Source: Candidatus Bathyarchaeota archaeon
GTDB lineage: Archaea; Thermoproteota; Bathyarchaeia; Bathyarchaeales; Bathycorpusculaceae
Reading direction: 5' to 3'
Length of the DNA stretch: 64,000 nt
NCBI GenBank assembly: GCA_963827165.1
Contig: CAWGZR010000005.1
Location: forward strand, 544,001 to 608,000
Part shown: one piece after another, positions 10,168-63,634 of the stretch
Numbering within the stretch: the first letter of the stretch is position 1
Layout of the letters: every line of letters begins with the position of its first letter
Translations under genes and position numbers: made by a program
The notes under the pieces: model-generated
What the model was told of the DNA's origin: nothing
Seen by the model: the letters and a program-made list of their open reading frames with translations, nothing else
The model's database searches: none

Positions 10168-10225
10168 AATCAAAATACTGTTTCAAAAACAAGGGTTTAA
10201 TTGAAAAAACGTGCAGAATGGTGTT

Positions 10226-10672: not shown

Positions 10673-10842
10673 AATAACCAGTTTTCTGGTTCTTTTTTTC
10701 ACAATTTAGTAGGCGACAAGACGGGCATTTTTTCGAGTTCTTCATCGGTGGCAATCGGGACGGTTTGCTGCTAAGTAAAGCCTTTAAATGTCAAAGCGAA
10801 TTCTATATTCCGCACCGCCTCAAACAGCTAGAAAATGTGCAT

Positions 10843-10930
10843 GCGGAGGTCGCCCAGCATGGCCAAAGGCGTAGGACTGAGGCTCCTATCCCGCAGGGGT
10901 TCGTGGGTTCAAATCCCACCCTCCGCACCA
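10843..10930 (+). tRNA. tRNA-Leu(GAG), CCA encoded
   Basis: GCGGAGG/CCTCCGC acceptor stem, TAGGA-CTGAGGC-TCCTA anticodon arm, long variable arm, GGTTCAAATCC T-loop, ACCA end. Confidence 0.95.
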
Positions 10931-10995
10931 ACCAACTATTTTTGAGGGCAAGTGAAATATAGCTTAAGCGACAATTTTGGTAGCTGGCGGTCGGT

Positions 10996-11451: not shown

Positions 11452-11458
11452 TGTCTTT

Positions 11459-47610: not shown

Positions 47611-47617
47611 GTGTAAA

Positions 47618-48160
47618 ATGTCATGTGAACCCTGGCAATGTGCAGAAATAGCAACAAGTAAAAAAGCAAACCCAATTCAAAAACCCGAGATAGCAGTAGC
47701 AATGATGAAAAAAGCTCAACACCCCATTCTTATTGTGGGAAGCAACGCCACAGAAAGATGTCTCGACGGCAAACTATTAATCGAATACCTAATTGACCTT
47801 GCAAAAGCATCAAAAGTACCTGTAGTAGCCACAGCCCACATGGTTGGCGAATTCCTGAAACGCGGATACGAACCCGCAGCATTCATGAATGCAATGGAAA
47901 TCGGCAACCTAGTTGTCGACCCAACCTGGCAGGGCTTAGACGGCAAAGGACACCCAGACCTCGTTATGACGGTGGGGTTGCCTTACTATGTCGAATCTTT
48001 GATGCTCTGCGGACTAAAACATTTTGCACCCGATCTGAAAACCATGACGCTGGACAATCTGTTCCATGTTCATGCAAGCTGGTCTTTTCCAAACGCAACC
48101 CTCGAGGAATGGGCTGCAAATCTCAAAGTCATGACTTCAAAATTTGAAGGAGGACAATAA
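47618..48160 (+). CDS. cdhB: ACDS complex epsilon subunit
   Basis: PWQ...MMKKAQHPILIVG, WQGLDGKGHPDL, LKHFAP, ASWSFPN. Confidence 0.95.
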   Translation: MSCEPWQCAEIATSKKANPIQKPEIAVAMMKKAQHPILIVGSNATERCLDGKLLIEYLIDLAKASKVPVVATAHMVGEFLKRGYEPAAFMNAMEIGNLVVDPTWQGLDGKGHPDLVMTVGLPYYVESLMLCGLKHFAPDLKTMTLDNLFHVHASWSFPNATLEEWAANLKVMTSKFEGGQ

Positions 48161-48165
48161 AAAAA

Positions 48166-49578
48166 ATGTCAATGTTTAAAGATATACCTGTTGAAGTTGG
48201 CGTAATCTACGAAGGAGAACGCATCAGAAGGAACGACATGCAAATTGAACTCGGCGGACCCACAGTCAAACAAAAGTTTGAATTAGCAAAAGTAAAACCC
48301 ATGGACCAAATCGACGATGGAAAAATCACCATAATCGGACCCGACATAAAAGACATGAAGGAAGGCGGAGCATACCCGCTTGGCATTCTTGTCGAAGCTG
48401 CAGGCGAAAAACTCGACGCGGGACTCGAAGGAGTCATTGAAAGACGCATTCACGGATACCTCAACTACATCGAAGGATTCATGCACCTAAACCAGCGCTA
48501 CGACATCTGGATACGCCTCGGCAAAAAATCATTCCAGAAAGGCTTAAACAGCTTTGAACCAATCGGCAAAGTCCTGTATCGCCTCTTTAAGAGTGAGTTG
48601 CCAATTATCGAGAAAGTACAAATCACTTTCATTACAGACACAGCCAAACTTGACGAAATGTACCCGGAAGCAGTCCAAGCATATGAGTCACGTGACGCAA
48701 AGGCAAGAGGCCTCAAAGACGAAGACGTTGACACATTCTACGGCTGCGCTCTATGTCAATCATTCGCGCCAAGCCACGTCTGCGTAATCACACCCCAAAG
48801 ATACAGCAACTGCGGCGCTATCAGCTGGTTCGACGGCAAAGCCTCAGCAAGCATTGACCCCAAAGGTCCAGTCTTCGCAATACCCCGCGGACAAATGCTA
48901 AATGCTGAAAAAGGCGAATTCAGCGGCGTAAACGAAACCGCAAAGAAACGAAGCATGGGCGAAGTCAATCAAGTCTGGCTCTATACAGCATTTGACCACC
49001 CGCACACTTCATGCGGATGCTTCGAAGCAGTAACCTTCTATATCCCAGAAGTCGACGGCTTAGCAGTTGTTCACAGAAGCTTCAAAGGTGCAACAGTAAA
49101 CGGCTTACCCTTTAGCACCATCGCAGACTCAGCGGCAGGCGGAAGACAAATCGATGGTTTCCACGGAATGTCCATTGAATATATGCGAAGCAAGAAATTC
49201 TTTGCAGCAGACGGCGGATGGAACCGCGTCGTTTGGGTACCTAAAGAAGTCAAAGAACGAGTCAAAGACTTTATCCCAGCAGAACTGGTTGACAAAGTAG
49301 CAACTGAAGAAGACGCAAAAACCGTTGATGAACTTAAGGCCTTCCTAAAAGCCAAAAATCACCCCGTAGTAGCAAGATGGGCAGCCGAAGAAGCACCAGC
49401 ACCTGAAGCGCAAGCAATACAAGTCACTGAAGAAGCAGCAGGCACAATGATGCCAGTTGCAACGGCAGGAACACTACCGATAATGGCGGGCGGCTTTAGA
49501 ATCATACTCAAAGACGCAAAGATCTATGCTAACAAAGTCATAATCCAAACCGTCAAAGACGACAAAGACAAGCGGTGA
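48166..49578 (+). CDS. cdhC: ACDS complex beta subunit (acetyl-CoA synthase)
   Basis: YEGERIR, ERRIH, FYGCALCQSFAPSHVC, PHTSCGCFE A-cluster motif. Confidence 0.97.
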   Translation: MSMFKDIPVEVGVIYEGERIRRNDMQIELGGPTVKQKFELAKVKPMDQIDDGKITIIGPDIKDMKEGGAYPLGILVEAAGEKLDAGLEGVIERRIHGYLNYIEGFMHLNQRYDIWIRLGKKSFQKGLNSFEPIGKVLYRLFKSELPIIEKVQITFITDTAKLDEMYPEAVQAYESRDAKARGLKDEDVDTFYGCALCQSFAPSHVCVITPQRYSNCGAISWFDGKASASIDPKGPVFAIPRGQMLNAEKGEFSGVNETAKKRSMGEVNQVWLYTAFDHPHTSCGCFEAVTFYIPEVDGLAVVHRSFKGATVNGLPFSTIADSAAGGRQIDGFHGMSIEYMRSKKFFAADGGWNRVVWVPKEVKERVKDFIPAELVDKVATEEDAKTVDELKAFLKAKNHPVVARWAAEEAPAPEAQAIQVTEEAAGTMMPVATAGTLPIMAGGFRIILKDAKIYANKVIIQTVKDDKDKR

Positions 49579-50831
49579 CACAGTTGCCCACAGACGGCGA
49601 CAAGAAAAAAGAAGATGAAGGACTAAAACTCAGCAATGAGTTAATGGAAGCCCTCGCGAAATTCAAACAAATCGAACTTGAAGATTTCCAAATCGACGTC
49701 AAAGAGCTTGAACTAATCTTCGAACCCGGCATGGCTGGGCAAATAATGCCCAAGCTAAAGCTCCCCGTTTCATTGGCAGCCGCAGGCGGAAAACCCACAT
49801 CAATGCTTCAAGTGCCATTCATACCACCAGTAGAAACGTATCCCAACACGATAACAGAAGTCAAACTCGGCGCAACCCGAAAAGAAGGCGGAACACGCGG
49901 AACAACCTTCACCATAGGCGGCGAAAAATCACCTGCATTCTACAACTTCGAGCGACCAACCACCCACAAACCCGTCATCACACTTGACGTTTTTGACATG
50001 GAAGTGCCACTGAGCAAAGCCGTCAAGATGCACGTTAAAGATGTCGTTGGAGATCCAGCGGCATGGGCAAAACTTGCAGTAGAGCAGTTCAAAGCCGACA
50101 TGGTAACAATCCACTTAATCAGCATCGACCCACTGCTAAAGGACGCTACTCCAAAAGACGCAGTGAAAACAGTTGAAAAAGTTTTGCAAGCAGTTGATGT
50201 TCCACTAGTCATCGGCGGATGCGGAGATCCAGTTAAAGACGCAAACGTTTTCGAAGCAATATGCGAGGCTTTCCCAGGCGAACGATTCCTAATCAGCTCG
50301 ATAACACGAGACATGGACGTTGAACGCTGCGCCAAATTCGTCAAAAAAGCAGGACATGCAGCACTCTCATTCACACCAATGGATCTCAACTTAGCGCGGG
50401 AACTTAACAGACGGCTATACGACTACTTAGGCAGAGAAGACATAGTCATGGACTTAACCACCGCAGCGTTAGGCTACGGCTTAGATTACGCGTTCACCAA
50501 CATGGAACGCGCAAGGCTCGGCGGATTAATGGGCGATATGGAACTTGCTCATCCGATGTCATCGGGAACAACCAATGCGTGGGCTGCACGAGAAGCTTGG
50601 CTGAAAATGTCCACGGAATGGGAACCACGCGAACTGCGAGGCCCGCTCTGGGAGGTAACCACTGCCCTGACACTTCTGCTTGCAGGCGTTGACCTGTTCA
50701 TGATGATGCATCCAGCAGCCGTCAAAACACTCAAAGACGTTACTAACTACCTGACCAGCGGCAAAAAAGCAGACGCATCCAAGTATGCTGACTGGGTAAC
50801 CATGAAAGCCCAAGGGGTTGGAAAACAATGA
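49575..50831 (+). CDS. cdhD: ACDS complex delta subunit (corrinoid Fe-S protein small subunit)
   Basis: LGAT...GGTR...IGGE, IGGCGDP, TAALGYGLDY, NAWAAREAW, MMMHP. Confidence 0.95.
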   Translation: MTQLPTDGDKKKEDEGLKLSNELMEALAKFKQIELEDFQIDVKELELIFEPGMAGQIMPKLKLPVSLAAAGGKPTSMLQVPFIPPVETYPNTITEVKLGATRKEGGTRGTTFTIGGEKSPAFYNFERPTTHKPVITLDVFDMEVPLSKAVKMHVKDVVGDPAAWAKLAVEQFKADMVTIHLISIDPLLKDATPKDAVKTVEKVLQAVDVPLVIGGCGDPVKDANVFEAICEAFPGERFLISSITRDMDVERCAKFVKKAGHAALSFTPMDLNLARELNRRLYDYLGREDIVMDLTTAALGYGLDYAFTNMERARLGGLMGDMELAHPMSSGTTNAWAAREAWLKMSTEWEPRELRGPLWEVTTALTLLLAGVDLFMMMHPAAVKTLKDVTNYLTSGKKADASKYADWVTMKAQGVGKQ

Positions 50832-52249
50832 CCGAGAAAAAAAGAGCCAGCTTAAAAGAATTAAGCCCCATTGACATTTACAAGGTTCTACCAAAAATCA
50901 ACTGCAAAGAATGCGGCCAAGACAACTGCATGGCGTTCGCCACAAAAATCGTTAACCGCGAAGTAGAACTCGACAGCTGCAAACCACTTCTAAAACCAGA
51001 AAACGCAAAAGCCTACGAGAAACTCAAGGACATTCTTAAGCCAGCCGTTAAAGAAGTCGTAGTTGGAGTCGGCGACAAAGCAAAGAAACTCGGCGGCAAA
51101 CTCGTAATGTACCGCCATGAATTCACCTACAAGAACCCAACAGCTATCGCAATCGACGTAACCGACGAAATGCCAATTCAAGAAGTCGTCTCACGAGTTC
51201 AGTACACCGAAAACTTCACCTTCGAATACATTGGAAACACACTAAAGCTGGACATGATCGCGGTAAGATGCACATCAGGCGATGCAGACAAATTCAAAGC
51301 AGTAGTCAAAAAAGTCGCGGAAACAACCAAACTACCACTAATCATATGCACATTGAACCCAGCCATAGCAGAGGCAGGCCTAATGGCAATACCCAAGGCA
51401 AAACCGCTACTCTACGCGGCAACCCCAAGCAACTGGAAAGACATGGCGGAACTCGCATTAATGTACGAATGCCCACTAGTCGCATCAGCACCAAACGACA
51501 TGACCGCACTAGTTTCACTCACAAAGACATTGATGACTTACGGAGTAACCGATTTGGTTTTAGACCCGGGCACCTTCCCCAACGAAGGCTTACCTGATAC
51601 AATAAACAACTTCACGATGCTACGCAGAGCGGCAACTAAAGGCGGCGAAGAACTTGCAGGATTCCCGTTAATGGGCGTACCAATGGTCGCATGGGAGGAC
51701 GCAGCAACAGCTGAAGACCTCTTGAAATGGCGCGAAGCATACTTAGCGTCAATGCTCATAGTACGTTACGCAGATGTGCTCGTCATGCACACAGTAAGCG
51801 GCTGGTCACTTCTACCCTCAACAGTGCTTAGGCAAAACATTTACACTGACCCACGCAAACCCGTCGCTGTAGCTCCAGGACTCAAAGTATTCGGAACACC
51901 AGACGAAAACTCGCCAGTAATGTTCACCACAAACTTCGCCCTAACATACTATACCGTCGCATCAGACATCGAAAGCAGCAAACTCAATGCATACCTAATT
52001 GTGGTTGAAACAGAAGGCAGCGCAATCGACAGCGGAGTCGCAGGAAGAAAACTAACTGCGGAACGCGTAGCCGACGCAATAAAAGCCTCAGGCATAGAGA
52101 GCAAAGTCAAACACAGAAAACTCTTAATCCCCGGCAAAGCATCACGAATCAGCGGCGAAATCGAAGAACTCAGCGGCTGGAAAGTCCTCGTTGGACCGCG
52201 CGACAGTAGCGAGATACCCAAGTATCTCATTGAGAAATGGCAACCATAA
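50828..52249 (+). CDS. cdhE: ACDS complex gamma subunit (corrinoid Fe-S protein large subunit)
   Basis: LPKINCKECGQDNCMAFA, RQNIYTDPRKP, TTNFALTYYTV, VGPRDS. Confidence 0.96.
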   Translation: MTEKKRASLKELSPIDIYKVLPKINCKECGQDNCMAFATKIVNREVELDSCKPLLKPENAKAYEKLKDILKPAVKEVVVGVGDKAKKLGGKLVMYRHEFTYKNPTAIAIDVTDEMPIQEVVSRVQYTENFTFEYIGNTLKLDMIAVRCTSGDADKFKAVVKKVAETTKLPLIICTLNPAIAEAGLMAIPKAKPLLYAATPSNWKDMAELALMYECPLVASAPNDMTALVSLTKTLMTYGVTDLVLDPGTFPNEGLPDTINNFTMLRRAATKGGEELAGFPLMGVPMVAWEDAATAEDLLKWREAYLASMLIVRYADVLVMHTVSGWSLLPSTVLRQNIYTDPRKPVAVAPGLKVFGTPDENSPVMFTTNFALTYYTVASDIESSKLNAYLIVVETEGSAIDSGVAGRKLTAERVADAIKASGIESKVKHRKLLIPGKASRISGEIEELSGWKVLVGPRDSSEIPKYLIEKWQP

Positions 52250-52290: not shown

Positions 52291-52417
52291 AGCAAAAAAT
52301 TTGTAACCTGCAATTGTACGTAATACCTTCCCGTGTTTCTTTCGGTTTTTTTTCTGAATTAGCGGTTGTTCATTAAGTTTTTATTTTAGATTGGGAATTG
52401 GGATTGTGGTGATTTTT

Positions 52418-52816
52418 TTGGATCATACGATTGTGCATTTTGAGATTCCAGCCAACGACATCGAGAAGATCAAGCAGTTTTATGTTGAGTTGTTCGGTTG
52501 GAAAATGGAAAAATACCCTGGACCGACAACATACTATCTTGTGGGAACTGTTCCCGTGGATGAAAAGACAATGATGCCTATCCGACCTGGTGTCAATGGT
52601 GGATTATACAATAGGAAGGACTCTTCAATGCCTGAAATGGCCAAGCCAACGAACTACATTTTAGTAGAGTCAGTCGAGGAATACAGTAAGAAGGTTGAGG
52701 CGTTGGGCGGCAAAATTGTTGTGCCTAAGATGGAGATTCCCGGATTAGGCTGGTGGGCGCTGGCGCTGGACCCTGAAGGCAATCACTTCGGATTGTTGGA
52801 GTACATGCAGAAGTAA
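52418..52816 (+). CDS. VOC/glyoxalase family protein
   Basis: IVHFEIPA, FYVELFGW, GVNGG, GGKIVVPKMEIPG, DPEGNHFGL. Confidence 0.9.
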   Translation: MDHTIVHFEIPANDIEKIKQFYVELFGWKMEKYPGPTTYYLVGTVPVDEKTMMPIRPGVNGGLYNRKDSSMPEMAKPTNYILVESVEEYSKKVEALGGKIVVPKMEIPGLGWWALALDPEGNHFGLLEYMQK

Positions 52817-53220: not shown

Positions 53221-54708
53221 ATAGGCTGCGGTATCTTTGGAGCAAAAAACTTTGAAAATCAAACGGTCTTTCCATATGTTTATTGGGGCCTCCGCGCCCA
53301 GAACCATCGGGGTCATCAATCTCACGGTTTCCTAACTTATGACGGTAAGTTTCATGTTTACAAAAGCTTAGATTTGGTTCCAAGGCTTAAAAACGAGGCT
53401 ATACATGAATGGTTCGACCGTTTGCCCGGCTCAGTAGGCATCGGCAACGTACGTTACACGACCTCGGGCAAATGTGACGATGCATCAATCATCGAAGGAA
53501 CCCAGCCTGTTGCTGCAAGTGCAGGCGGAATAAAACTTGCACTCTCATTTAACGGCAACATCGTAAACACTTTACCGCTTAAGAAGGAAATGAGCGACAA
53601 CTTTTCCGACTTCCACTTTAACTGCGACTCAGACGTCGTCTGCCACAAACTGCTCCTTGGACTCAAAGAAGGCAAAGACCTGCCGAGTGCGGTTCGATCA
53701 GTGATGGAAAGCCTTGACGGCGCATTCTCCGTAACTGGGCTCACGGGCGATGGCGACTTTTTCGCTTTTAAAGATCCGCATGGAATAAAACCCCTCTGCG
53801 CAGGGCACGACCCCGCGGGCGCAACCCTCGCTTTCTGCTCGGAAACAGTGGGGTTAGATATGAACAGCTTCGTGAGGGACTTTGAGCTAAACCCAGGAGA
53901 ACTCGTTACCGCTTCAAAAGACGGGTTCAAACGAATACAAATTATCGAAAAACCCCGCCAAGCTTTCTGCTCTTTCGAATACGCATATTTTGCTAGGCCA
54001 GATTCAAGGTTTGACGGCAAATACGTTTATGAAATCCGCGAGGACTTCGGAAGAAACATTGTTCACGAGTTTCCAGAGATAGTTCGAGACGGCGACATAA
54101 TCATGTCAGTTCCTGAAACAGGAGACGATCCTGCCATGGGAGTCCACGAAGCTTCAGGTTTAAGATGGGAACGTGCATCTAGGCGGCACCGCTACGTCAC
54201 CGAACGAGCCTTCATTCTTCTAAACACGGAAAGATTCTCAACTATCGATAAGAAAATCAACATTTTAGGCTCCAAAGTAGACGGCAAACGTGTTATAATA
54301 ACAGAAGACAGCATAGTCCGCGGAGACACGACAAAAATCATCATAGATAAACTTCGAAAGGCAGGAGCCACAAAAGTCTACGTCTTCGTCACGTTCCCAA
54401 GAATCATCGGTCCATGCTTCTATGGCATCGACATGTCAACATACGGGCAACTCATCGGCTCCAAACACAGCACAGAGGAAATCGCCAAAATCATCGGCGC
54501 AGACGCGGTATGCTACCAATCAATTGAAGCATTAATCAAAGCTACAGGTCAAACAGAAAATGAACTTTGCATGGCCTGTATCACAGGCAAATACCCGACG
54601 CCCTGCGCTCAAAAAATGGCTGATGCAATGAAAAAGAAGTTCCTTGAAGGTTACGAGGAAAAATCAAGAATCTACGAAACCGAAGACTCCCAGCCAAAAA
54701 AGCAGTAA
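53221..54708 (+). CDS. purF: Amidophosphoribosyltransferase (Fe-S type); non-canonical start (ATA 53221 or CTA 53215)
   Basis: In-frame CGIFG...AQNHRG from 53227; GNVRYTTSG, FNGN, CSFEYAYFARPDS, EDSIVRGDT, PCFYGID, CMACITG. Confidence 0.93.
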   Translation: MGCGIFGAKNFENQTVFPYVYWGLRAQNHRGHQSHGFLTYDGKFHVYKSLDLVPRLKNEAIHEWFDRLPGSVGIGNVRYTTSGKCDDASIIEGTQPVAASAGGIKLALSFNGNIVNTLPLKKEMSDNFSDFHFNCDSDVVCHKLLLGLKEGKDLPSAVRSVMESLDGAFSVTGLTGDGDFFAFKDPHGIKPLCAGHDPAGATLAFCSETVGLDMNSFVRDFELNPGELVTASKDGFKRIQIIEKPRQAFCSFEYAYFARPDSRFDGKYVYEIREDFGRNIVHEFPEIVRDGDIIMSVPETGDDPAMGVHEASGLRWERASRRHRYVTERAFILLNTERFSTIDKKINILGSKVDGKRVIITEDSIVRGDTTKIIIDKLRKAGATKVYVFVTFPRIIGPCFYGIDMSTYGQLIGSKHSTEEIAKIIGADAVCYQSIEALIKATGQTENELCMACITGKYPTPCAQKMADAMKKKFLEGYEEKSRIYETEDSQPKKQ

Positions 54709-54748
54709 ACATCAAGCGTACCGTCTTGAATTAACACGGTGTAATCTT

Positions 54749-56164
54749 ATGGAGAAAATAGGTGTACTAGTAGTTTCGTACGGCGCAAGAGAAGTTGCAA
54801 TGGTTGATGCGCTACTGCAAAGCACACGCTACCAAGTGGAACTCTTCGTTGCTGATAAGCAACGTAATCCGTACAATATTGAAAAAGCCGTCAAACACGA
54901 GGTTATCCCAAACCTCGATGTTGCGGAGATATGCAAGTTCGCCCAAGCAAACAAAGACAAAATCGACTTCGCCCTGGTTGGGTCAGAAAAACCCATAATT
55001 GACGGCGTCCGCGACCAAATCGAAAAATCTACAGGAATACCAGTCATCTGCCCAAAGCAGCAATACGCCATAGAAGTCAGCAAAGTAGAGCAGCGCCAAC
55101 TTTTCGATGAGATAGCGCCAGAAGCTAACCCGAGGTTCAAAGTCTTTAGCCCGGCTGACTACAAAGGAGGGGCAGACGTCAAAAGCGCAGTTTACCGTTG
55201 GCTAGACGAACTCGACAACCAGGCAGTTGTTAAGCCTGACAAACCTGCTCTGGGGAAAGGTGTCGGAGTCTGGGGTGACCACTTCGCTAACCGCGAAGAG
55301 CTTTTTGAGCACTTCATGTCTAACTTCAAGTACGGCAACGTCATAATCGAGGAGAAAATCGACGGGGAAGAATCAAGTTTCATGGCTTTCTGCGACGGCA
55401 AACACTTCATTGCGCTTCCAGACACAAGGGACTACAAACGTGCCTTCGACGGCGATCGAGGTCCAAACACGGGCGGGATGGGCTCATACAAAGACTCAGA
55501 CGGCAGATTGCCTTTCTTGACCGCCGTGGAACGGGACGATGAGTTGGCGTTAGCGAACAAGATTTTCAAAGGGTGGAAAGCCAAAATCAAAGATGATTCC
55601 GCGCTGAGAGGTGTGCCTTTATACCTTGCTTTTATGCACACAGGGAAGGGGATCAAGGTTCTTGAGAACAACAGTCGCCCTGGCGACCCCGAAATAATTA
55701 ATTTGCTTGCTCTAATCAAGGATGATTTCATCGACGTCTGCTTCAGGATTATTGAGGGAAACTTGACAGGCGTCAAAATGGATAATGCAGCGTCCGTTTT
55801 AACCTACAAGGTTCCACTTGATTACGGCGGCTACGCAGAAGTCTTCCCCGCCCAAGCTCGCCTCGCGGAGGCTAACACTCCGGTTGACTTATCAAAAGCC
55901 CTTTCGCTAACCAAGAAATACGGTAACCGCATCCGCGTTTACCCAGGCTCAATGGAAATCAGAAACGGCAAAAACTACGCATTAAAATCTCGTGCCGTCG
56001 GCGTCTTAGGCATTGCGGATAGCATTGAGGAGGCGCGCAGCATAAGTCTTGAAGGAACCGAAGCAATTTCTGGCGGGGGATTGTGGAGCAGAACCGATGT
56101 CGCCTCAAAGAAAAACATCGCAAAAGCCGTTCAGCACATGGAGAGTTTGAGGCGCAAGGCGTGA
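54749..56164 (+). CDS. purD: Phosphoribosylamine--glycine ligase
   Basis: YGARE, VVKPD..ALGKGV, IEEKIDGEE, DYKRAFDGDRGPNTGGMGS, ENNSRPGDPE. Confidence 0.92.
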   Translation: MEKIGVLVVSYGAREVAMVDALLQSTRYQVELFVADKQRNPYNIEKAVKHEVIPNLDVAEICKFAQANKDKIDFALVGSEKPIIDGVRDQIEKSTGIPVICPKQQYAIEVSKVEQRQLFDEIAPEANPRFKVFSPADYKGGADVKSAVYRWLDELDNQAVVKPDKPALGKGVGVWGDHFANREELFEHFMSNFKYGNVIIEEKIDGEESSFMAFCDGKHFIALPDTRDYKRAFDGDRGPNTGGMGSYKDSDGRLPFLTAVERDDELALANKIFKGWKAKIKDDSALRGVPLYLAFMHTGKGIKVLENNSRPGDPEIINLLALIKDDFIDVCFRIIEGNLTGVKMDNAASVLTYKVPLDYGGYAEVFPAQARLAEANTPVDLSKALSLTKKYGNRIRVYPGSMEIRNGKNYALKSRAVGVLGIADSIEEARSISLEGTEAISGGGLWSRTDVASKKNIAKAVQHMESLRRKA

Positions 56165-57243
56165 AGCGCATCTTCATTTCCGACTGCGAAGGACCGATCA
56201 GCAAAAACGACAACGCCTTCGAATTATCGTCAAACTTTATTCCGAACGGCGACAAATTGTTCACTAACATAAGCAAGTATGATGACGTTCTAGCTGACAT
56301 TTTTCGCAAACCCGGCTATTCGGCTGGAAGCACGCTTAAGCTTATTTTGCCCTTTTTCAAAGCATACGGGCTAACTGATGCGCAGCTGGAAGACTACTCT
56401 GCTAAAAACATAATCTTGATCGCCAACAGTCAAACCACCCTTAGTCACGTACAAACTATCGCCGACGCTTTCATAGTAAGTACCAGCTACGAACACTATA
56501 TCAAAGCCCTATGCAAAGTCACAGATTTCCCATTCAGAAACACATACTGTACCCGTTTAAGTCTTGACAAATGCGGCATTACACCGCAGGAAAAAGAGCG
56601 GCTAAAAGAAGTAGCGCAAGAAATTGCCCAAATGAACACAATTGCCATTCCGCAAGCTTCGAAAGCCCTTGAAGATTTTTCGCAAGGTGACCAAGCAGTT
56701 ATTCGGCGTTTAGACCAGATCTTCTGGAGTGAAATTCCAAAGATGTTCGTCGGCAAATTCCTTGTGGACGTGGTTACTGTGGGCGGTGAACAAAAGGCTG
56801 AGGCAATCCGTAGCGCAGTGAAGCGTTTAGGACGGGAACTGGTCGATGTGATGTATGTAGGTGACAGCATCACTGACGTGGAAGCATTCAAGCTGGTGCG
56901 AGCAGGCGGCGGGTTAACAGTTTCCTTCAACGGCAACGACTACGCGGTTAAGAACGCTGAAGTCGCGGTTCTGTCGGAAAGCAGTCTTGTAACAGCCGTG
57001 ATTGCGGATTTGTTCTGCAGGTATGGGACGGAAAAAGCGCTTGAAGCCCTCCAAAGTTGGAGTAATGCTACGCTCAAAAACAGCGACGTTGACTCTTCTG
57101 TGCTTAAGCAACTTTCGCAGATGTATCCTGATGCCTTGCCTAAAGCTAAAATAATTACGGATCAAAACATGGAAATACTCATAAAAGAAAGCAGCGCGTT
57201 TAGAAAGAAAGTGCGAGGTGTAGCGGTTGGAAAGCTCGGGTAA
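56161..57243 (+). CDS. HAD-superfamily hydrolase-like protein (EhaR-like)
   Basis: GTG start overlapping the purD stop (GTGA); FISDCEGP motif I, IVSTSY motif II, YVGDSITD motif IV, SFNGN. Confidence 0.8.
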   Translation: MKRIFISDCEGPISKNDNAFELSSNFIPNGDKLFTNISKYDDVLADIFRKPGYSAGSTLKLILPFFKAYGLTDAQLEDYSAKNIILIANSQTTLSHVQTIADAFIVSTSYEHYIKALCKVTDFPFRNTYCTRLSLDKCGITPQEKERLKEVAQEIAQMNTIAIPQASKALEDFSQGDQAVIRRLDQIFWSEIPKMFVGKFLVDVVTVGGEQKAEAIRSAVKRLGRELVDVMYVGDSITDVEAFKLVRAGGGLTVSFNGNDYAVKNAEVAVLSESSLVTAVIADLFCRYGTEKALEALQSWSNATLKNSDVDSSVLKQLSQMYPDALPKAKIITDQNMEILIKESSAFRKKVRGVAVGKLG

Positions 57244-57244
57244 A

Positions 57245-58162
57245 ATGGCAGAAGCGGAAATAGAGGACACTTATGCTGAAGCTTTCACTGGGCTCTTTTG
57301 TCGCGTCATTGTCACGGCAGATGACAAAGAAACATTGCAAAAGGCTGCTGAAGATTCCACTGCAGCTCCTTCGGTTGTGATCGGAAGGACGGAAGGCGGA
57401 GTCGAAAGATATCTCACTCAAAAAGAAACCCCTGACCAGCGTTTAGGCGCTTTGTTGCAGATCTGGGGAGAAATTAACCCCAAAAAAACCTTCGAGGAAT
57501 CACTCAAAAAATTTGAAACTGAACTTTCCTACCGAATTCGCCAAGACATCTTGGTTAAGCCCTTCACAGCTGTTTTCGACGCCCTACTAAACGCCGAAGG
57601 AAAATTGGATATGATGGAGACTGTTGGGCATTGCGGCGACGGCTATGAATGGGTAGAAAAACGCTGCGGCCGAGAAGTCATAGTGGTTCCCCTAATGGTT
57701 CCCGACTTCGTGATTGAACGCTACTTAGGCTACAGTCGTGGGGTCATGGGAGGCAACTTTTGGGTAATGTGCAAAACCAAGCAAGCCCTAAAACTTTCAG
57801 GCGAAAAAGCCTTAGCTGCCATCCACAATGTGCCCGGCGTTGTCACACCCTTTGACGTATGCTCAGCAGGTTCTAAGCCCGAAACACATTTTCCCAAGAT
57901 TGGTCCCACAACGAACCACATATATTGCCCATCGCTTAAACAGAAGTTAGGAAAAGAATCCCGAGTACCCGACAATGCAGGCTACTTAGCTGAAGTGGTC
58001 TTTGACGGGGTTTCTTTGGAAGCCGTTAAACAGGCAACCAAAGTAGGCATCGAAGCAGTGCTGGGCGTTGAGGGCGTGGTGAAGATTTCTGCGGGCAACT
58101 ACGGGGGTAAACTGGGAGACCACAAAATAATGTTAAAGGAGTTATTTCATGACAAAATTTGA
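57245..58162 (+). CDS. Formylmethanofuran:tetrahydromethanopterin formyltransferase homologue (divergent Ftr-II/EhaS-like)
   Basis: IEDTYAEAF, ETPD, GDG, GVMGGNF, GSK, TTNHIYCPSL, EVVFDG, ISAGNYGGKLG. Confidence 0.88.
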   Translation: MAEAEIEDTYAEAFTGLFCRVIVTADDKETLQKAAEDSTAAPSVVIGRTEGGVERYLTQKETPDQRLGALLQIWGEINPKKTFEESLKKFETELSYRIRQDILVKPFTAVFDALLNAEGKLDMMETVGHCGDGYEWVEKRCGREVIVVPLMVPDFVIERYLGYSRGVMGGNFWVMCKTKQALKLSGEKALAAIHNVPGVVTPFDVCSAGSKPETHFPKIGPTTNHIYCPSLKQKLGKESRVPDNAGYLAEVVFDGVSLEAVKQATKVGIEAVLGVEGVVKISAGNYGGKLGDHKIMLKELFHDKI

Positions 58163-59066
58163 TGTTGTAGGTTTCGGAGCTCTTAATGTTGACATGCTCT
58201 TTAAAGTGGAGAGGCTAGCACGGGCTGAAGAGGAAAGCTTCGTTGAAGATTACACTGAGGCCTGCGGCGGCTCAGCGGCAAATACCACTGTTGGTTTGGC
58301 AAGGCTCGGCTGCAAAACTGGCTTCATCGGAAAAGTAGCTGATGATCGAGAAGGCAAATTACAAGTCGACTGTTTCAAAACTGAAGGTGTAGACACAGCA
58401 GGCATCGTTCAGGCGAAGAGGGGGAAAAGCGGGTCAGTTATGGGATTCGTGGACAAGAAAGGGGCAAGAGTCCTCTACATCAACCCAGGAGTCAACGATT
58501 TAATCGAGCCTCGAGAAATAAACTACAGCTACGCTTTCGGGACAGAATTTCTGCATTTCTCATCATTTGTTGGCGAAAAATCTTTTCGAGCCCAAAAAAA
58601 ACTCTTAGGCGCTTTGCCCAGCAATGTCAAAATCAGCTTTGACCCCGGGTCAGTATACGCACAGAAAGGTTTTGCAGCCATTGAACCGATAATTCGAAGC
58701 TCCTACGTTTTTATGCCTAACGAGGGCGAACTTGAACTCATAACTGGAGAAACTGACATCCGCAGAGCCGCCGACTCAATACTTGACGCAGGGGTCAAAA
58801 TCGTAGCAGTCAAGCTGGGCGATAAAGGCTGTTACGTTACTGATGGGCAGGAACGGCTGAGAATCGAGCCTTTCAAAGTTAAAGTGGTCGACACAACTGG
58901 GGCAGGTGACGCTTTCTGTGCTGGCTTCCTCTACGGCTTAATCAAGGAGAAGAGCCTCTTCGAATGCGGGCGCTTTGGTAATTTTGTCGCTTCAAGATGT
59001 GTCACAGCGATGGGAGCCCGCGGTGGATTGCCTTATGCCAAAGATTTACAGGCATTTTTTGGTTAG
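58149..59066 (+). CDS. PfkB/ribokinase-family carbohydrate or nucleoside kinase (EhaT-like)
   Basis: GALNVD, GGSAAN, FDPG, PNEGE, VKLGDKG, DTTGAGDAFCAGF. Confidence 0.92.
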   Translation: MTKFDVVGFGALNVDMLFKVERLARAEEESFVEDYTEACGGSAANTTVGLARLGCKTGFIGKVADDREGKLQVDCFKTEGVDTAGIVQAKRGKSGSVMGFVDKKGARVLYINPGVNDLIEPREINYSYAFGTEFLHFSSFVGEKSFRAQKKLLGALPSNVKISFDPGSVYAQKGFAAIEPIIRSSYVFMPNEGELELITGETDIRRAADSILDAGVKIVAVKLGDKGCYVTDGQERLRIEPFKVKVVDTTGAGDAFCAGFLYGLIKEKSLFECGRFGNFVASRCVTAMGARGGLPYAKDLQAFFG

Positions 59067-59867
59067 GTTGCTGATCACGTTTTGGAAGATTAGTTTTCCG
59101 TCGCCATAATGTGGCATTTGATTTTGACTGGTCCAATCGGGTTGTTGCCACCAAAACATGGCTCTTTCCGGATGAGGCATAAGCCCGAAAACGTTTCCTT
59201 CCCTGTTGCATAACCCAGCAATATCATAGAAGGAGCCGTTGGGGTTAGCGGGGTACTTGCCGTCTGCAACCGTGCCGTCTTTGTCGCAGTACCGGAAAAC
59301 AACCATGTCGTCATCTATCAGTTTGGTAAGAAGCGCTTGCTCTTTTTCTTTCGGGAAAAGCAATCTTCCTTCCCCATGAGCGATAGGCATCCTCAACATT
59401 TGACCAGCTGCGATTTTGTTCGTGAAGAGGCATTTTCCGCGGTTTTCATGTTTTAGGTAGATCCACTGGCACTTGAAGCCTGCAGGTTCGTTGGTCGTCA
59501 AAGTAGCTTCGGGGTATGAACTTACGTCTTTGAATCCTGGGAGCAAACCGTACTCAACCATTATTTGGAATCCGTTGCATATTCCCAGGATTGGTCTGCC
59601 ATCGTCGATGAAAGTTTCCATTTCTTTGCCTAACTTGGCGCTAAGATGTCTTGCGAAAATTACGCCTGAACGTACATAATCGCCAAAGGAGAAGCCGCCT
59701 GGAAAAACCAGCACCTGATAATCGAGCAAGCTATGCAGTTTTGCTAGTTCGTTGACATGCAGGACGTCGGTTTGGACGCCTAACTCGTGGAAAGCCCGCT
59801 GAGTTTCCGAGTCACAATTTGTTCCGCCAACACGCATGACGCAGACTTTGATTTCTTCGAGCTTCAT
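59046..59867 (-). CDS. purQ: FGAM synthase glutaminase subunit
   Basis: GTNCD, PGGFSFGDY, LGICNGFQ, AHGEG, NPNGS, GLMPHPER. Confidence 0.96.
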   Translation of the reverse strand: MKLEEIKVCVMRVGGTNCDSETQRAFHELGVQTDVLHVNELAKLHSLLDYQVLVFPGGFSFGDYVRSGVIFARHLSAKLGKEMETFIDDGRPILGICNGFQIMVEYGLLPGFKDVSSYPEATLTTNEPAGFKCQWIYLKHENRGKCLFTNKIAAGQMLRMPIAHGEGRLLFPKEKEQALLTKLIDDDMVVFRYCDKDGTVADGKYPANPNGSFYDIAGLCNREGNVFGLMPHPERAMFWWQQPDWTSQNQMPHYGDGKLIFQNVISNLTKKCL

Positions 59868-62248
59868 CAAGTTTTACCGCCAAATGTTTTCTTCCAGCTC
59901 CGCCGCAAATCTGCAAGTGAAGCGTCGACGATGGTTTTCATGTTTAACCCGTTAACGACCAATCGCTCGTCTTTGGTTACTTTTCCGATCTGAGCGTAAG
60001 GTTTGTTTCTCATTACAGACTCAAAGTCTTCTTTATCTTGCTCTGACACTTCTAGCAGGAAACGGCTGTTCGACTCAGAAAACAACATAAAATCGTTCCG
60101 CTCAATGCCCGTCGCCGGCACTTTGCTTAAATCCAGTTGCAAGCCGTAGCCGCCAGCAAACGCCATCTCCGCCGCCGCTACCGCCAACCCGCCTTCCGAG
60201 AGGTCGTGGCATGACTTGATTAAGCCCGAATCTATTGCTTTGGTAACTGCCCTGAAAGTGCGTTTAGCTTTGGCACCTTTAACTTTTGGAACACTTGCGC
60301 CCAGATAGCCATTGAGTTTGTAGTATTCTGAGCCACCCAATTCGTGTAGTGTTTCTCCTGCGATGTAGAGCAGGTTGCCAGGTGCTTTTAGATCCATTGA
60401 AGTCACCAATTGAATGTTTGGCAGGATGCCTACTGCCGTAATCAACAGCGTTGGGGTAACGGGACCCATCGGGGACTCATTGTAGAGGCTATCTTTTCCA
60501 GAGATAAACGGAGTCTTGAACGCCACTGCAAAGTCATAGCATGCTTCGCAAGCCCGAACCAGTGAGCCTAAACGCTCCGGCTTTTCAGGGTTTCCCCAAG
60601 TGAAATTATCAAGCAACGCAATTCTTCTTCCCCCCACCGCAACGTTGTTTCTCACTGCCTCATCAATGGCAGAAGCCGCCATCCAGTAAGGGTCAATTTT
60701 GCCATAATTCGGCTTCATACCGCACGAAATCGCTAAACCCTTCCATGAATCATTAAGCGGTTTGAGAACGGCTGCATCGTTCGGTCCAGCGTAGACTCCC
60801 TGGAGGGGTTTAAGCGTCGTGTTGCCTTTGACCTCATGGTCATATGTTCGTATGACGCTTTCTTTGCTAGCTATGTTTGGGGCTGCAAGCAATTGAAGCA
60901 GGGTCTCAGTCAGGTTTTCAGGGGCGGAAAACTGCGGTTCCGCGAAGCTTGATTTTTCAATGGTCGCTATTTTCACGCTTTTGCAGGGGTTAAACAGGAA
61001 AGCCATTTCCATGTCCGCGACTTTTTCGCTGTTGAAATTGAGGAGTAGACGTCGTTCAGTTGTGAGTTTTCCGATTGCCGTTGCTTCGACATCTTCTCTC
61101 GCAAATATCGCCATGACTCGGTCTAAGTTTTCAGGCGGAACCGTTATGAGCATTCTTTCTTGTGATTCGGAAATGTAAATTTCCCAGGGCGCTAAACCGC
61201 GGTGCTTGAGGGGCACTTTGTCTAGGTCAATTGTTATTCCACAGTTGAACCTTTCAGCTGTTTCACCTATAGCTGACGATAATCCGCCTCCTCCAAGGTC
61301 GGTTGTCGCCGAAGCAAGTTGCAAATCACGGATATCTATTATCGCCCTTTTCACTTTCTCTTCTTCGATCGGATCAGCGATTTGCACCGCAGGTCGCGAA
61401 ATCTCCTCGGATTTCTCCGTTAATTCGGCTGAGGCGAAGGTTACGCCGTGGATGCCATCGCGTCCTGTTTTTCCACCAGCCAAAACCACGATATGCCCTG
61501 GTTTAGCGTTTTTTGTGAATTTAGCTAGCGGAAGGAGTCCTATGCATCCGCAATAGACAGTGACGTTGCCTGTGTAGCTTTCGTCAAAGTATATTGCTCC
61601 GTTGACCGTTGGGATTCCCATGTTGTTTCCATAGGCGCTGATGCCCGCTGTCACGCCCATGTAAACGTATTTTGGGTGTTTCACGCCTGCTGGAAGCTTT
61701 TTGTAGTCGTAATCGAGCGGTCCGAAGCCTAAAACGTCGGTGCATGCGATCGGGTCAGCCCAAACGCCAAGTATGTCCCTGATTACGCCTCCGACCCCTG
61801 TGGCCGCCCCGCCAAAGGGTTCTACTGCTGATGGGTGATTATGGGTTTCAACTTTTGCCGCTATACCGTATCCTTGGTCGAAGCGGACGATTCCCGCATT
61901 GTCTTCGAAAACGCTAAAGCACCATGGCGCCTTGATTTGTTTAGTTGCTTTTGCAATGTAGGTTTTGAAAAGGCTGTCGATTTCTTTGCCGTCAAGAAGG
62001 ATTTTTCCTTTGAAAGTTTTGTGGTAGCAGTGCTCTGACCATGTTTGACTGATGGTTTGCAGCTCAACGTCGGTTGGGTTTCTTCCTTCCGTTTTAAAGT
62101 AGGTTTGGATGCTCTTCATTTCTTCGACACTTAAGCCTAACGCTAATTCACTACTGGCTTCAGCGAGTTGCTTATCGTTGGCTTCAGCTAAAGCTGCTTC
62201 GTAGAGGGCGTAATCTGTCTTGCGGGCACGGTAAAGTGAAGAGCTCAT
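59867..62248 (-). CDS. purL: FGAM synthase large subunit
   Basis: WSEHCYHK, KVETHNHPSAVEPFGGAATGVGG, GRDGIHG, SESQERM, GKDSLYN, HDLSEGG. Confidence 0.97.
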   Translation of the reverse strand: MSSSLYRARKTDYALYEAALAEANDKQLAEASSELALGLSVEEMKSIQTYFKTEGRNPTDVELQTISQTWSEHCYHKTFKGKILLDGKEIDSLFKTYIAKATKQIKAPWCFSVFEDNAGIVRFDQGYGIAAKVETHNHPSAVEPFGGAATGVGGVIRDILGVWADPIACTDVLGFGPLDYDYKKLPAGVKHPKYVYMGVTAGISAYGNNMGIPTVNGAIYFDESYTGNVTVYCGCIGLLPLAKFTKNAKPGHIVVLAGGKTGRDGIHGVTFASAELTEKSEEISRPAVQIADPIEEEKVKRAIIDIRDLQLASATTDLGGGGLSSAIGETAERFNCGITIDLDKVPLKHRGLAPWEIYISESQERMLITVPPENLDRVMAIFAREDVEATAIGKLTTERRLLLNFNSEKVADMEMAFLFNPCKSVKIATIEKSSFAEPQFSAPENLTETLLQLLAAPNIASKESVIRTYDHEVKGNTTLKPLQGVYAGPNDAAVLKPLNDSWKGLAISCGMKPNYGKIDPYWMAASAIDEAVRNNVAVGGRRIALLDNFTWGNPEKPERLGSLVRACEACYDFAVAFKTPFISGKDSLYNESPMGPVTPTLLITAVGILPNIQLVTSMDLKAPGNLLYIAGETLHELGGSEYYKLNGYLGASVPKVKGAKAKRTFRAVTKAIDSGLIKSCHDLSEGGLAVAAAEMAFAGGYGLQLDLSKVPATGIERNDFMLFSESNSRFLLEVSEQDKEDFESVMRNKPYAQIGKVTKDERLVVNGLNMKTIVDASLADLRRSWKKTFGGKT

Positions 62249-62496
62249 TGCTGATCCTCAAAAGTTACGGTATAGTTGTCTTTGGTTGGGTTCGCAAGGA
62301 GGCGTTTGCTCATCTCTTCCGCTTTTACCTTTGCCTCATTAATTGTCTTCGCCTCAAGCGAGACCGTGTAGACTTTGCTTACGTCCACCGCTTGCACTTT
62401 ATATCCGAGTTCCGTTAGCAAACGGGCTGTTGTTTCCCCTTCAGGGTTGCTGTGACCTGGTTTCAGGATGACTTCTATCTTCGCTCGGTATATCAT
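62245..62496 (-). CDS. purS: FGAM synthase small subunit
   Basis: LKPGHSNPEGET...RLLANP; overlaps the purL start. Confidence 0.9.
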   Translation of the reverse strand: MIYRAKIEVILKPGHSNPEGETTARLLTELGYKVQAVDVSKVYTVSLEAKTINEAKVKAEEMSKRLLANPTKDNYTVTFEDQQ

Positions 62497-62554
62497 AAAT
62501 CCTTTAAATTAAGCCTAAAGATTTAAACGCTTTCAACAGAAAAAAAGCAAAATT

Positions 62555-63634
62555 TTACGTCAAAACCAGCCTTTTGTTTCCGTACTTTACTTCCACCGTT
62601 TTCTTATCAGTTACTTTCCCTATGATTTCAGGCTTTTCCCCATCTATCTCCAACGCACTCATGGCTTTGTCCGCTTCAGATTTGTCCAAAATAATGCCAA
62701 AACCCCATCCCATGTTAAAAGTTTTGAACATTTCCTCATCAGAAATGCAGTAGCCTAATTCAGCCGCAGTCTTTTGGATCAGCTCGAATATGGGTTGTGG
62801 ACTGAAGTTGCTAAATTCAAAGCCTATCCCCGGCGAAAAATTAGCCAGGTTGTTAAATTTCATGTAACCATCACCCGTGATATGGACAGCCGCTTTCACC
62901 TTGACTTTGCTAGCCACCTTAAGAAGCGGCTTAACATAAATTTTCGTCGGCTCGAGCGCTTCAAGCACAACTTCCCTATCTAATCCTTCAGGGACATCGT
63001 TTGGCTGGTATTTTCCTCCCCACTGCTTAAACAAGATTTTTCTAACCATCGTTAAGCCGTTGCTATGCAATCCACTGCTTGCTAAGCCTATTATCGGGTC
63101 TTCCGGCTTGATGCCTTCGCCAGTTATGATGTTTTGCCGCTCAACCGTTCCAACTGACGCGACTACCATGTCAAAGCCTGTATTGTCGACTAAGCCTTTT
63201 ATTATTTCTGCCACATCACCTGTTTCCCCGCTTGTAACTGGGCACTCTGCTTCAGCGGCGCCTTGACCGATTCCTTTGAGCCACTCTCTTACAAGGCGAG
63301 GTTCACTGGCTTGCGCATGGATGTTGTCGGCAATTGCAAGGGGTCGGGCTCCTGAACGTATTACATCGTTAACCGCCATCGCCACCGCGTCGACGCCTAT
63401 AGTGTCATATTTGTTTGCCAATTGTGCCAAAAGAACTTTGGTTCCTACCCCTTCAATGACTAGGTCCAAAAAAGTGTTTTCGCCAACCGGAAAAATGTTG
63501 CCATATGGCAAACGCATTACATTGCCAAAGCGGCTGTACTTGTAAGTTTCCTGTAGATCTTTCAGGGCTTTTTTTGATTCGACGCGCTGCTGCCGATTTA
63601 CACCTGCATCCGTGTAAGTGAAGTTTTTGGGCAA
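62555..63634 (-). CDS. purM: Phosphoribosylformylglycinamidine cyclo-ligase (AIR synthetase)
   Basis: YTDAGV, EGVGTK, AMAVND, GET, SSGLHSNG, HITGDG, TFNMGWG. Confidence 0.95.
   Translation of the reverse strand: MPKNFTYTDAGVNRQQRVESKKALKDLQETYKYSRFGNVMRLPYGNIFPVGENTFLDLVIEGVGTKVLLAQLANKYDTIGVDAVAMAVNDVIRSGARPLAIADNIHAQASEPRLVREWLKGIGQGAAEAECPVTSGETGDVAEIIKGLVDNTGFDMVVASVGTVERQNIITGEGIKPEDPIIGLASSGLHSNGLTMVRKILFKQWGGKYQPNDVPEGLDREVVLEALEPTKIYVKPLLKVASKVKVKAAVHITGDGYMKFNNLANFSPGIGFEFSNFSPQPIFELIQKTAAELGYCISDEEMFKTFNMGWGFGIILDKSEADKAMSALEIDGEKPEIIGKVTDKKTVEVKYGNKRLVLT

Follow-up and report, generated by a model that had tools for sequence, protein, structure and literature searches.

Which enzyme formylates glycinamide ribonucleotide (GAR) in archaea that carry neither PurN nor PurT? 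The question is raised by a purine cluster at positions 53221-63634 of a 64,000-nucleotide stretch of a Candidatus Bathyarchaeota archaeon genome (assembly GCA_963827165.1, contig CAWGZR010000005.1, positions 544,001 to 608,000), hereafter called the window. The cluster reads purF-purD-HAD-Ftr2-PfkB on the plus strand, with purQ, purL, purS and purM converging on it from the minus strand. As an earlier interpretation made from the letters of the window alone (the sequence-only reading) had stated, genes for step 1 (purF), step 2 (purD), step 4 (purS, purL and purQ) and step 5 (purM) of purine synthesis are all present. Behind purD stands Ftr2 (57245..58162, plus strand, 305 amino acids (aa)), a member of the formylmethanofuran:tetrahydromethanopterin (H4MPT) formyltransferase (Ftr) family and a candidate for step 3, the conversion of GAR to formylglycinamide ribonucleotide (FGAR). 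The sequence-only reading had proposed this Ftr paralogue as a GAR transformylase, and our results support the proposal. For the step-3 enzyme missing in many archaea, Ftr2 is the strongest candidate to date; judged from sequence comparison, it is probably a GAR formyltransferase that depends on formyl-H4MPT or formyl-methanofuran, both here and in other archaea that lack PurN and PurT.

The step-3 hole in the purine pathway of this genome is real. The source genome consists of 14 contigs and is 94.5% complete, with 3.9% contamination. Throughout it there was no match to PF00551, the PurN fold, and the best match to the PurT model TIGR01142 scored 50 bits against a cut-off of 502, inside a frame of 1091 aa; the lack of purN and purT that had been noted for the cluster thus extends to the whole genome. 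Ftr2 itself is not of the PurN type, its fold being unrelated to Formyl_trans_N, and no ATP-grasp protein of the PurT type was found in the genome. Two tandem PurP genes are present (C11:111078-112714; PF06973, 222 and 251 bits) and a search for the PurH formyltransferase domain found none, suggesting that the second formylation (step 9) is formate-dependent and folate-free. The Ftr family is represented by two genes, the window copy and a higher-scoring canonical copy at C5:893536. Since this canonical Ftr, FwdA (799 bits) and Mch (391 bits) are all encoded elsewhere in the genome, formyl-methanofuran and formyl-H4MPT should both be available, and Ftr2 is a spare copy beside the canonical enzyme.

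By sequence, the window protein is a member of the Ftr family (583 clusters among 1.84 billion representatives) and not a member of its characterised clade. PF01913 (150 bits) and PF02741 (178 bits), which make up the two-lobe Ftr fold, cover its full length; it passes the NCBIfam model NF002554 (332 bits, cut-off 297) and is 36-41% identical over the full length to the solved Ftr structures (1FTR/2FHJ/2FHK, 1M5H and 1M5S). Its E250 aligns with the Glu of the motif YEIVING in three solved Ftr structures and is invariant in 8/8 groups compared; the catalytic glutamate of the M. kandleri enzyme is presumably Glu245. In our trees, which were quick maximum-likelihood trees without bootstrap, with an unresolved backbone among the non-Ftr1 clades and an uncertain root, the canonical Ftr1 clade (Shimodaira-Hasegawa approximate likelihood-ratio test (SH-aLRT) 99-100) excludes the window Ftr2 and includes the copy at C5:893536. 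Note that we use 'Ftr2' as a label for all non-Ftr1 archaeal clades, with which the window protein groups. These clades have in common residues that Ftr1 lacks: G16, P42, V45, G47, W74, R99, G128, C130, W173, C176, G220 and P221 in the numbering of the window protein. Ftr2 differs from Ftr by its place outside the canonical clade, by the cysteine at position 130, which is Phe in 15/15 Ftr1 rows, by R99, W173 and G220-P221, and by being a purine-linked second copy whose distribution is complementary to that of PurN and PurT. D101 is confined to the two clades that contain pur-linked genes. Five Ftr2 matches, in G082, G090, G098, G043 and G113, contain one in-frame TGA each, which may be the stop codon at the end of the alignment (PfkB overlap).

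Ftr2, PF00551, PurT and purD were searched for in the same 151 Bathyarchaeia genomes. Matches to the window Ftr2 were bimodal, with either at least 48% identity and at least 258 bits or at most 43% identity and at most 200 bits. The Ftr2 type was present in 57 genomes (in G062 as a fragment), PF00551 in 54 and a PurT-like protein in 13, and Ftr2 overlapped with the others only in G149 (PF00551, 79 bits, in a 300-aa frame) and G001 (a weak PurT-like match, 175 bits). purD was found in 122 genomes, with Ftr2 in 54 of them, PF00551 in 50 and PurT in 13. Exactly one step-3 type was present in 113 of these 122 genomes, two in 2 and none in 7 (G042, G053, G074, G079, G101, G105 and G108), four of the seven being 61-77% complete. 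All three types were missing from 29 genomes of the 151, and 22 of those 29 also lacked purD. The step-3 types alternate inside single families: family f11 comprises 2 genomes with Ftr2, 8 with PurT, 1 with PurN and 3 with none, and family f21 comprises 3 with Ftr2 and 2 with a PurN-like protein. At least four switches were counted, including one in Archaeoglobi; note that the genomes are relatives, so that the counts overstate independent events, and that metagenome-assembled genomes (MAGs) are incomplete.

The step-3 types also meet at one position in the genome. In 50 of the 54 Bathyarchaeia with both genes, Ftr2 is found 3' of purD in the same orientation, separated from it by the 1.1-2.1 kb that the HAD gene takes up; in the other four, the two genes are 17 kb apart (G044), divergent (G001) or on different contigs (G050 and G007). 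A PF00551 gene directly follows purD in 19/50 Bathyarchaeia (54-1326 bp) and PurT does so in 4/13 (about 200 bp). Thus, the same slot is filled by one of three unrelated genes. Neighbours were also counted in 66 Bathyarchaeia-like loci from named public MAGs, each count being limited to loci with room: HAD stands upstream of Ftr2 in 55/61, purD within 2.6 kb in 49/57, and PfkB directly after Ftr2 in 60/63. The synteny of this Ftr with pur genes, from which the sequence-only reading had started, is therefore conserved, and it recurs in other phyla.

In one genome the exchange has taken place within the cluster itself. G028 reads purF-purD-PurN-like (330 aa)-HAD-PfkB-FolD on one strand, a natural in-cluster swap of Ftr2 for a PurN-like gene. 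The product has its best NCBIfam match to PurN (51 bits, below the cut-off) and carries the motifs I-N-L-H-P and D-E-G-P; G010 and G002 likewise read purF-purD-PurN-like. The G028 cluster contains FolD as well as its PurN-like gene, and no PurP was shown in the PurN-like genomes among the rows read (G002, G010, G028 and G034; the fifth such genome is G140), so that the folate set of PurN-like gene and FolD replaces the set of Ftr2 and PurP. Neither the alternation of PurN, PurT and HAD-Ftr2 in the slot behind purD nor the swap in G028 had been foreseen by the sequence-only reading. The divergent PurN-like genes directly after purD (L132 7341-8333 in G028 and L130 7799-8635 in G010; 278-330 aa, PurN model 51-77 bits) may themselves represent an undescribed PurN subfamily.

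Compared with the two established enzymes, Ftr2 would share its acceptor with PurN, and the two have in common the post-purD position, a mutually exclusive distribution in Bathyarchaeia and the G028 swap. They are unrelated in sequence and fold, and the donor of Ftr2 would be methanofuran- or H4MPT-bound formyl whereas that of PurN is 10-formyl-tetrahydrofolate. With PurT, Ftr2 would share a folate-independent step 3; PurT can take the same slot in Bathyarchaeia, and in Archaeoglobi it is present just where Ftr2 is absent. PurT, however, is an ATP-grasp ligase that uses free formate, whereas Ftr2 has no nucleotide-binding fold and would transfer carrier-bound formyl without ATP.

The same complementarity was seen outside Bathyarchaeia. 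Among 81 Archaeoglobi genomes, 68 carry a full-length Ftr2 type, scoring 387-478 bits with the Ftr2 profile against 240-287 for the Ftr1 types, and five (G198, G204, G205, G228 and G229) carry fragments whose score density suggests Ftr2. PF00551 was found in none of the 81, and PurT (462-466 bits) in two, G213 and G218, both of which have only an Ftr1-type match; neither Ftr2 nor PurT was found in G157, G176, G200, G216, G223 and G231. In 151 Asgard genomes the Ftr2 type is present in 27 (at least 353 bits, or a fragment), PF00551 in 68 and PurT in 3, and 17 of the 27 Ftr2 genomes lack both PurN and PurT. Five genomes were checked singly: purD was present in all, and G151, G153, G154 and G155 were without PurN and PurT. 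Hence the anti-correlation between this Ftr subfamily and PurN/PurT, on which the sequence-only reading turned, holds inside Bathyarchaeia and Archaeoglobi and is not absolute, both being present in 10 of the 27 Asgard Ftr2 genomes and in Methanoliparum. With these exceptions, Ftr2 is found where PurN and PurT are absent and in the same operon position.

Outside Bathyarchaeia, Ftr2 has been embedded in pur operons independently, in two Asgard lineages among others. Atabeyarchaeia and LC30 have purQ-purL-purF-purD-Ftr2, with neither HAD nor PfkB. Asgard G275/G292 have purF-purD-HAD-Ftr2-PfkB-purL-purQ-purM, with an Ftr2 only 40% identical to the window copy; Mnemosynella has purD-HAD-Ftr2-PfkB, and in the archaeal locus L013 HAD-Ftr2 stands back to back with purD-purF. 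Three further Ftr2-clade proteins (P0316, P0348 and P0373) come from sources named Altiarchaeota, Aenigmatarchaeota and Micrarchaeales, which may reflect binning errors or give a hint on the formyl carrier; to our knowledge, methanofuran/H4MPT metabolism is not normally attributed to these groups.

The sequence-only reading had called it established that a GAR transformylase cannot be recognised in several archaeal lineages, and this is in print. In the parts of the text cited here, Brown et al. 2011 could detect neither purN nor purT in M. kandleri, two Archaeoglobi and four species listed as 'Methanomicrobiales'; these four are named as Methanothermobacter, Methanosphaera and two Methanobrevibacter, and belong to Methanobacteriales. 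The authors stressed the purine prototrophy of M. thermautotrophicus, and reported one PurP and neither PurN nor PurT for Methanobacteriales (PMC3261824). Chadwick et al. 2022 reported Ftr2 paralogues in anaerobic methanotrophic archaea (ANME) of the groups ANME-1 and ANME-2a/b, in Archaeoglobales, M. kandleri and M. marburgensis, and ascribed step 3 in ANME-1, Archaeoglobales and Methanobacteriales, which lack PurN and PurT, to 'an as yet unidentified enzyme' (PMC9012536). In the passages of that paper used here the two statements stand in separate sections and are not connected (PMC9012536). The groups that these excerpts report without PurN and PurT (Archaeoglobi, Methanobacteriales, M. kandleri and ANME-1) are those that they report with Ftr2 paralogues. 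Note that none of the best 80 of 581 relatives belonged to Methanobacteria or Methanopyri, and our statements on both rest on papers only. No publication linking an Ftr paralogue to GAR formylation was found in the literature searched, outside of which lay most subscription journals and supplements.

How could an Ftr perform this reaction? In the Ftr reaction, formyl passes between N5 of H4MPT and the primary aminomethyl group of methanofuran; a protonated Glu stabilises the tetrahedral intermediate (PMC6926001). Because GAR also has a primary aminomethyl group and the Glu is conserved in Ftr2, the simplest model places GAR in the methanofuran position. Ftr2 would then take formyl from the methanofuran/H4MPT one-carbon (C1) pool and pass it to the glycyl amine of GAR, yielding FGAR by the same Glu-assisted transamidation as in Ftr. 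The simplest donor would be N5-formyl-H4MPT; alternatively, formyl-methanofuran could be the donor, with GAR in the pterin position. The model predicts that the H4MPT site of Ftr2 is conserved and its methanofuran site reshaped, with a pocket that binds phosphate. Ftr2 would in this way stand in for PurN or PurT in an archaeon whose purine synthesis uses no folate, step 9 being carried out by the formate-dependent PurP. FhcD (6S6Y; catalytic glutamate Glu252) offers a parallel: this protein of the Ftr family was recruited for another physiological role and uses the same chemistry in it (PMC6926001). It differs in scoring only ~100 bits to the window protein and in acting within a four-subunit complex with bound methylofuran, and no FhcA/B/C-like genes stand beside Ftr2.

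Several points weigh against a GAR formyltransferase. What has been shown comprises gene order, distribution, paralogy and the lack of PurN and PurT, whereas GAR as acceptor, the donor and the mechanism are inferred. Formyl-H4MPT (N10) was not believed to be a formyl donor in the passage cited from Brown et al. (PMC3261824). Passing formyl from formyl-H4MPT to a primary amine costs a little energy, +4.4 kJ/mol for methylofuran (PMC6926001); a transfer so close to thermoneutral would be pulled forward by the ATP-dependent PurL step. Ten of the 27 Asgard Ftr2 genomes also carry PF00551. The six of these whose loci were fetched form a clade of their own with G243 (SH-aLRT 96) and are unlinked to pur genes, the other four not being in the tree; G243 itself has no PF00551. 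Methanoliparum, the fifth of the genomes checked singly, carries PurN plus an unlinked Ftr2, and ANME-2a/b are reported with both Ftr2 and PurN in the excerpt from Chadwick et al. (PMC9012536). Moreover, pur genes are absent from the vicinity of Ftr2 in 12/12 Archaeoglobi loci, 6 Thermoproteota loci and the majority of Asgard loci. The genomes counted are, as noted above, related to one another, the MAGs among them are incomplete, and Methanobacteriota lie outside the genomes sampled here. The Methanothermobacter homologue is, in the part of the paper cited, co-transcribed with Eha hydrogenase genes (PMC3087415). Passing the NCBI Ftr cut-off and keeping the catalytic Glu are both compatible with ordinary Ftr activity, and the roles of HAD and PfkB are not explained by the model of the sequence-only reading.

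The neighbourhoods of unlinked Ftr2 genes have no common theme. In the Archaeoglobus-type locus L104 (G178; 9205-11598) the order is thiM-thiE-Ftr2, and in L010 Ftr2 has carB and pdxT-like neighbours, all of these gene names having been read from the N-termini of open reading frames (ORFs) only. Thiamine synthesis branches from the purine intermediate aminoimidazole ribonucleotide (AIR).

The genes that accompany Ftr2 bear on what the module does. In the window, the TGA of purD and the GTG of HAD overlap as GTGA, one base separates the TAA of HAD from the ATG of Ftr2, and the ATG of PfkB lies 14 nt before the end of the Ftr2 TGA; the tight coupling described by the sequence-only reading is exact. 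HAD (56161..57243, plus strand, 360 aa) is a HAD-IB-like protein of the AF1437 or 'EhaR'-like family, with weak HAD Pfam matches. D8, E10, G11, P12, T108, S109, K212, D235 and D239 are invariant in 22 homologues and include the HAD phosphatase motifs (nucleophile D8, T108/S109, K212 and D235/D239), with the second Asp of motif I replaced by an invariant Glu (D-x-E-G-P). Its predicted structure has a predicted local distance difference test (pLDDT) score of 95, and the model has its best PDB match in 1Y8A, AF1437 of A. fulgidus, a HAD-IB protein (template-modelling (TM) scores 0.82/0.94, 26% identity), followed by phosphoserine phosphatases. We also considered HAD as a phosphoserine phosphatase that would supply serine, and hence glycine and a C1 unit; our results speak neither for nor against this role. 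PfkB (58149..59066, plus strand; PF00294, 182 bits), an 'EhaT'-like kinase of the ribokinase-like PfkB family, has ribokinase as its best NCBIfam match (173 bits, cut-off 300) and stays below every NCBIfam cut-off, with ribokinase-type features.

purD (54749..56164, plus strand; GARS_N/A/C) belongs to a divergent subtype of GAR synthetase. It scores 235 bits on TIGR00877 (cut-off 288), and purD of Ftr2 Bathyarchaeia in general scores 220-270 bits, versus 300-505 in most PurN or PurT genomes. This low-scoring subtype co-occurs with the HAD family, and family f15 has the subtype without HAD. We rejected the idea that Ftr2 requires a low-scoring purD, as G153, G154 and G155 combine an above-cut-off purD with Ftr2. 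The HAD family itself is present in 62 of the 151 Bathyarchaeia, namely all 57 Ftr2 genomes and five PurN-like genomes with low-scoring purD, and in no genome whose PurN or PurT is canonical. In G044, G050 and G007, where Ftr2 sits elsewhere, HAD keeps its place next to purD. In Archaeoglobi G161 (L113 1495-3329) HAD adjoins PfkB far from Ftr2, and in Atabeyarchaeia no HAD was found with the window HAD as query. The HAD and PfkB pair belongs to the purine or ribose-phosphate metabolism of such clusters and is not required by Ftr2 everywhere; since both genes travel with the PurN-like gene in G028, we do not claim a specific HAD-Ftr2 complex. The HAD homologue L112 in the alignment, probably AF1437 itself, is 30% identical to the window HAD and is not near Ftr2 or pur genes. 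In Methanoliparum (L111 1489-3736) HAD adjoins a gene read as fructose-1,6-bisphosphate aldolase/phosphatase.

These associations could mean that the HAD-Ftr2-PfkB module serves purine synthesis while Ftr2 formylates a substrate other than GAR, or removes formyl. It might make N-formylglycine for the divergent PurD, act on a dephosphorylated riboside intermediate, or release formate for PurP or a formate-dependent ligase. The distribution of HAD, its adherence to the divergent purD, the ribokinase-like motifs of PfkB and the need of the genome for formate in the PurP reaction would all fit such a role. We consider it unlikely, since Atabeyarchaeia and G155 pair Ftr2 with an above-cut-off purD, in Atabeyarchaeia even without HAD, and since the gene that replaces Ftr2 is a relative of PurN-type GAR formyltransferase. 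Formate release in particular would not explain why 12 of the 13 PurT genomes have PurP yet no Ftr2, the exception being G001 with its weak PurT-like match.

Might Ftr2 instead be a second formylmethanofuran:H4MPT formyltransferase, an isoenzyme for the Wood-Ljungdahl or C1 pathway comparable to the Mcr/Mrt or Fwd/Fmd pairs, with its place among pur genes reflecting co-regulation? The NF002554 score, the catalytic Glu and many other conserved core residues are what an isoenzyme would show, and many Ftr2 genes are unlinked to pur genes, some with PurN in the same genome. The Wood-Ljungdahl genes that the sequence-only reading had placed nearby are real: genes for carbon monoxide dehydrogenase/acetyl-CoA synthase (CODH/ACS), namely cdhA, cdhB, cdhC and two CdhD-family genes, occupy 45259..52249 on the plus strand (Prismane/CODH, CO_dh, CdhC with ACS_CODH_B_C, and CdhD twice) and are situated 2.5 kb upstream of the pur cluster. 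An isoenzyme would not account, however, for the absence of Ftr2 exactly where PurN or PurT is present, within families and in Archaeoglobi, for the post-purD slot common to Ftr2, PurN and PurT, or for the PurN-like gene in place of Ftr2 in the G028 cluster; and PurN or PurT genomes that still carry Ftr1 go without Ftr2. We therefore find this explanation distinctly unlikely.

Very improbable is a step-3 enzyme of another kind, such as a PurP, either bifunctional or a second copy, that would use formate and ATP, with the Ftr2 pattern as a by-product of a folate-free lifestyle: the tandem PurP genes of the source genome, the co-occurrence of Ftr2 and PurP in 55/57 Ftr2 genomes and the view of Brown et al., in the part cited, that a formate-dependent step-3 enzyme is possible (PMC3261824) speak for it, whereas tandem PurP pairs recur in many Bathyarchaeia whatever their step-3 enzyme, including PurT (G005, G016, G073 and G119) and PurN (G064 and G111), 14 Ftr2 genomes show a single PurP match, a single PurP is reported for Methanobacteriales, which lack PurN and PurT, and a by-product of lifestyle would not put Ftr2 in the post-purD slot in three phyla.

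A GAR formyltransferase also invites a comparison with EhaR, EhaS and EhaT, encoded at the end of the eha operon in Methanothermobacter and belonging to the same three families. Neighbouring genes of HAD-like, Ftr-like and PfkB type are found in the window, in Mnemosynella and in Asgard G275/G292. Kaster et al. 2011, in the excerpts cited, note the annotation of EhaS/EhaT as Ftr/ribokinase and take their co-transcription as an argument for hydrogenase subunits (PMC3087415); the Ftr-like gene is called EhaS in one passage and EhaT in another (PMC3087415). Orthology with the window trio rests on such papers and on an automatic name, the Atlas neighbour cluster of the window HAD being named EhaR, which is a lead and not an alignment. 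The difference lies in the setting, as the eha genes are co-transcribed with a membrane hydrogenase and the trios of the window, Asgard and Mnemosynella stand in pur clusters; no hydrogenase genes were found in 44-64 kb of the window, the genome not having been searched for eha.

In a bolder view, Ftr2 would be a third independent class of GAR transformylase, HAD and PfkB would act in the same route, and EhaR, EhaS and EhaT would be purine enzymes; that all three hold together is unlikely. Purine C8 would then be drawn directly from the methanofuran/H4MPT formyl pool. The order purD-HAD-Ftr2-PfkB might, speculatively, be that of dephosphorylation, formylation and re-phosphorylation with ATP, which would make the transfer irreversible, and the link to Eha would reflect its role in replenishing the C1 cycle when biosynthesis draws off formyl groups.

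Purine synthesis belongs to core metabolism, and at least since 2011 its third enzyme has counted as missing from Archaeoglobi, Methanobacteriales, Methanopyrus and ANME-1 (in the parts cited of PMC3261824 and PMC9012536). If Ftr2 is a GAR formyltransferase, a known enzyme family would gain a new function that addresses this long-standing gap, and the hole would be closed for those groups and for many Bathyarchaeia and Asgard archaea. Hundreds of 'formylmethanofuran-H4MPT formyltransferase' annotations, which metagenome studies now treat as markers of methanogenesis or the Wood-Ljungdahl pathway, would have to be corrected, and the odd last genes of the eha operon would have a rationale. Such a transfer, from a carrier of the methanogen-type C1 pool and without ATP, would also show how folate-free lineages came to connect purine synthesis with C1 metabolism, a point of interest for models of early metabolism.

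The other genes of the cluster are those of ordinary purine synthesis, and close homologues of the window proteins are named as Candidatus Bathyarchaeia. On the minus strand lie purQ (59046..59870; PF13507, 226 bits), the glutaminase of formylglycinamidine ribonucleotide (FGAM) synthase, purL (59867..62248), an FGAM synthase of 793 aa named from the sequence-only reading and from its synteny with purQ and purS in related loci, and purS (62245..62496; PF02700, 67 bits), all for step 4, followed by purM (62555..63634), the AIR synthetase of step 5, a 359-aa ORF whose position is conserved in related loci. On the plus strand, purF (53221..54708), the amidophosphoribosyltransferase of step 1, matches TIGR01134 with 290 bits on a shorter ORF. 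There is no ATG, GTG or TTG ahead of its catalytic Cys; the frame is open upstream of the listed ORF and reads K-I-G-C-G-I-F-G. The ATA codon at 53221, which would give a product beginning M-G-C-G-I-F-G, is most likely the start. The corresponding position is ATG, hence Met, in the relative L076 and Ile in L053, L084, L026 and L048, which suggests a conserved non-canonical start at an Ile codon.

Finally, the metatranscriptome X20 contains short contigs with 0 differences from purF (53394-53551) and PfkB (58490-58773), contigs from an RNA library that do not prove transcription. Two more pieces match purD at 85-90% likeness and nothing falls on HAD or Ftr2, the uncovered parts proving nothing. 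Between the cdh genes and purF, an ORF of 141 aa (52391-52816) encodes a protein with a glyoxalase/bleomycin-resistance fold.

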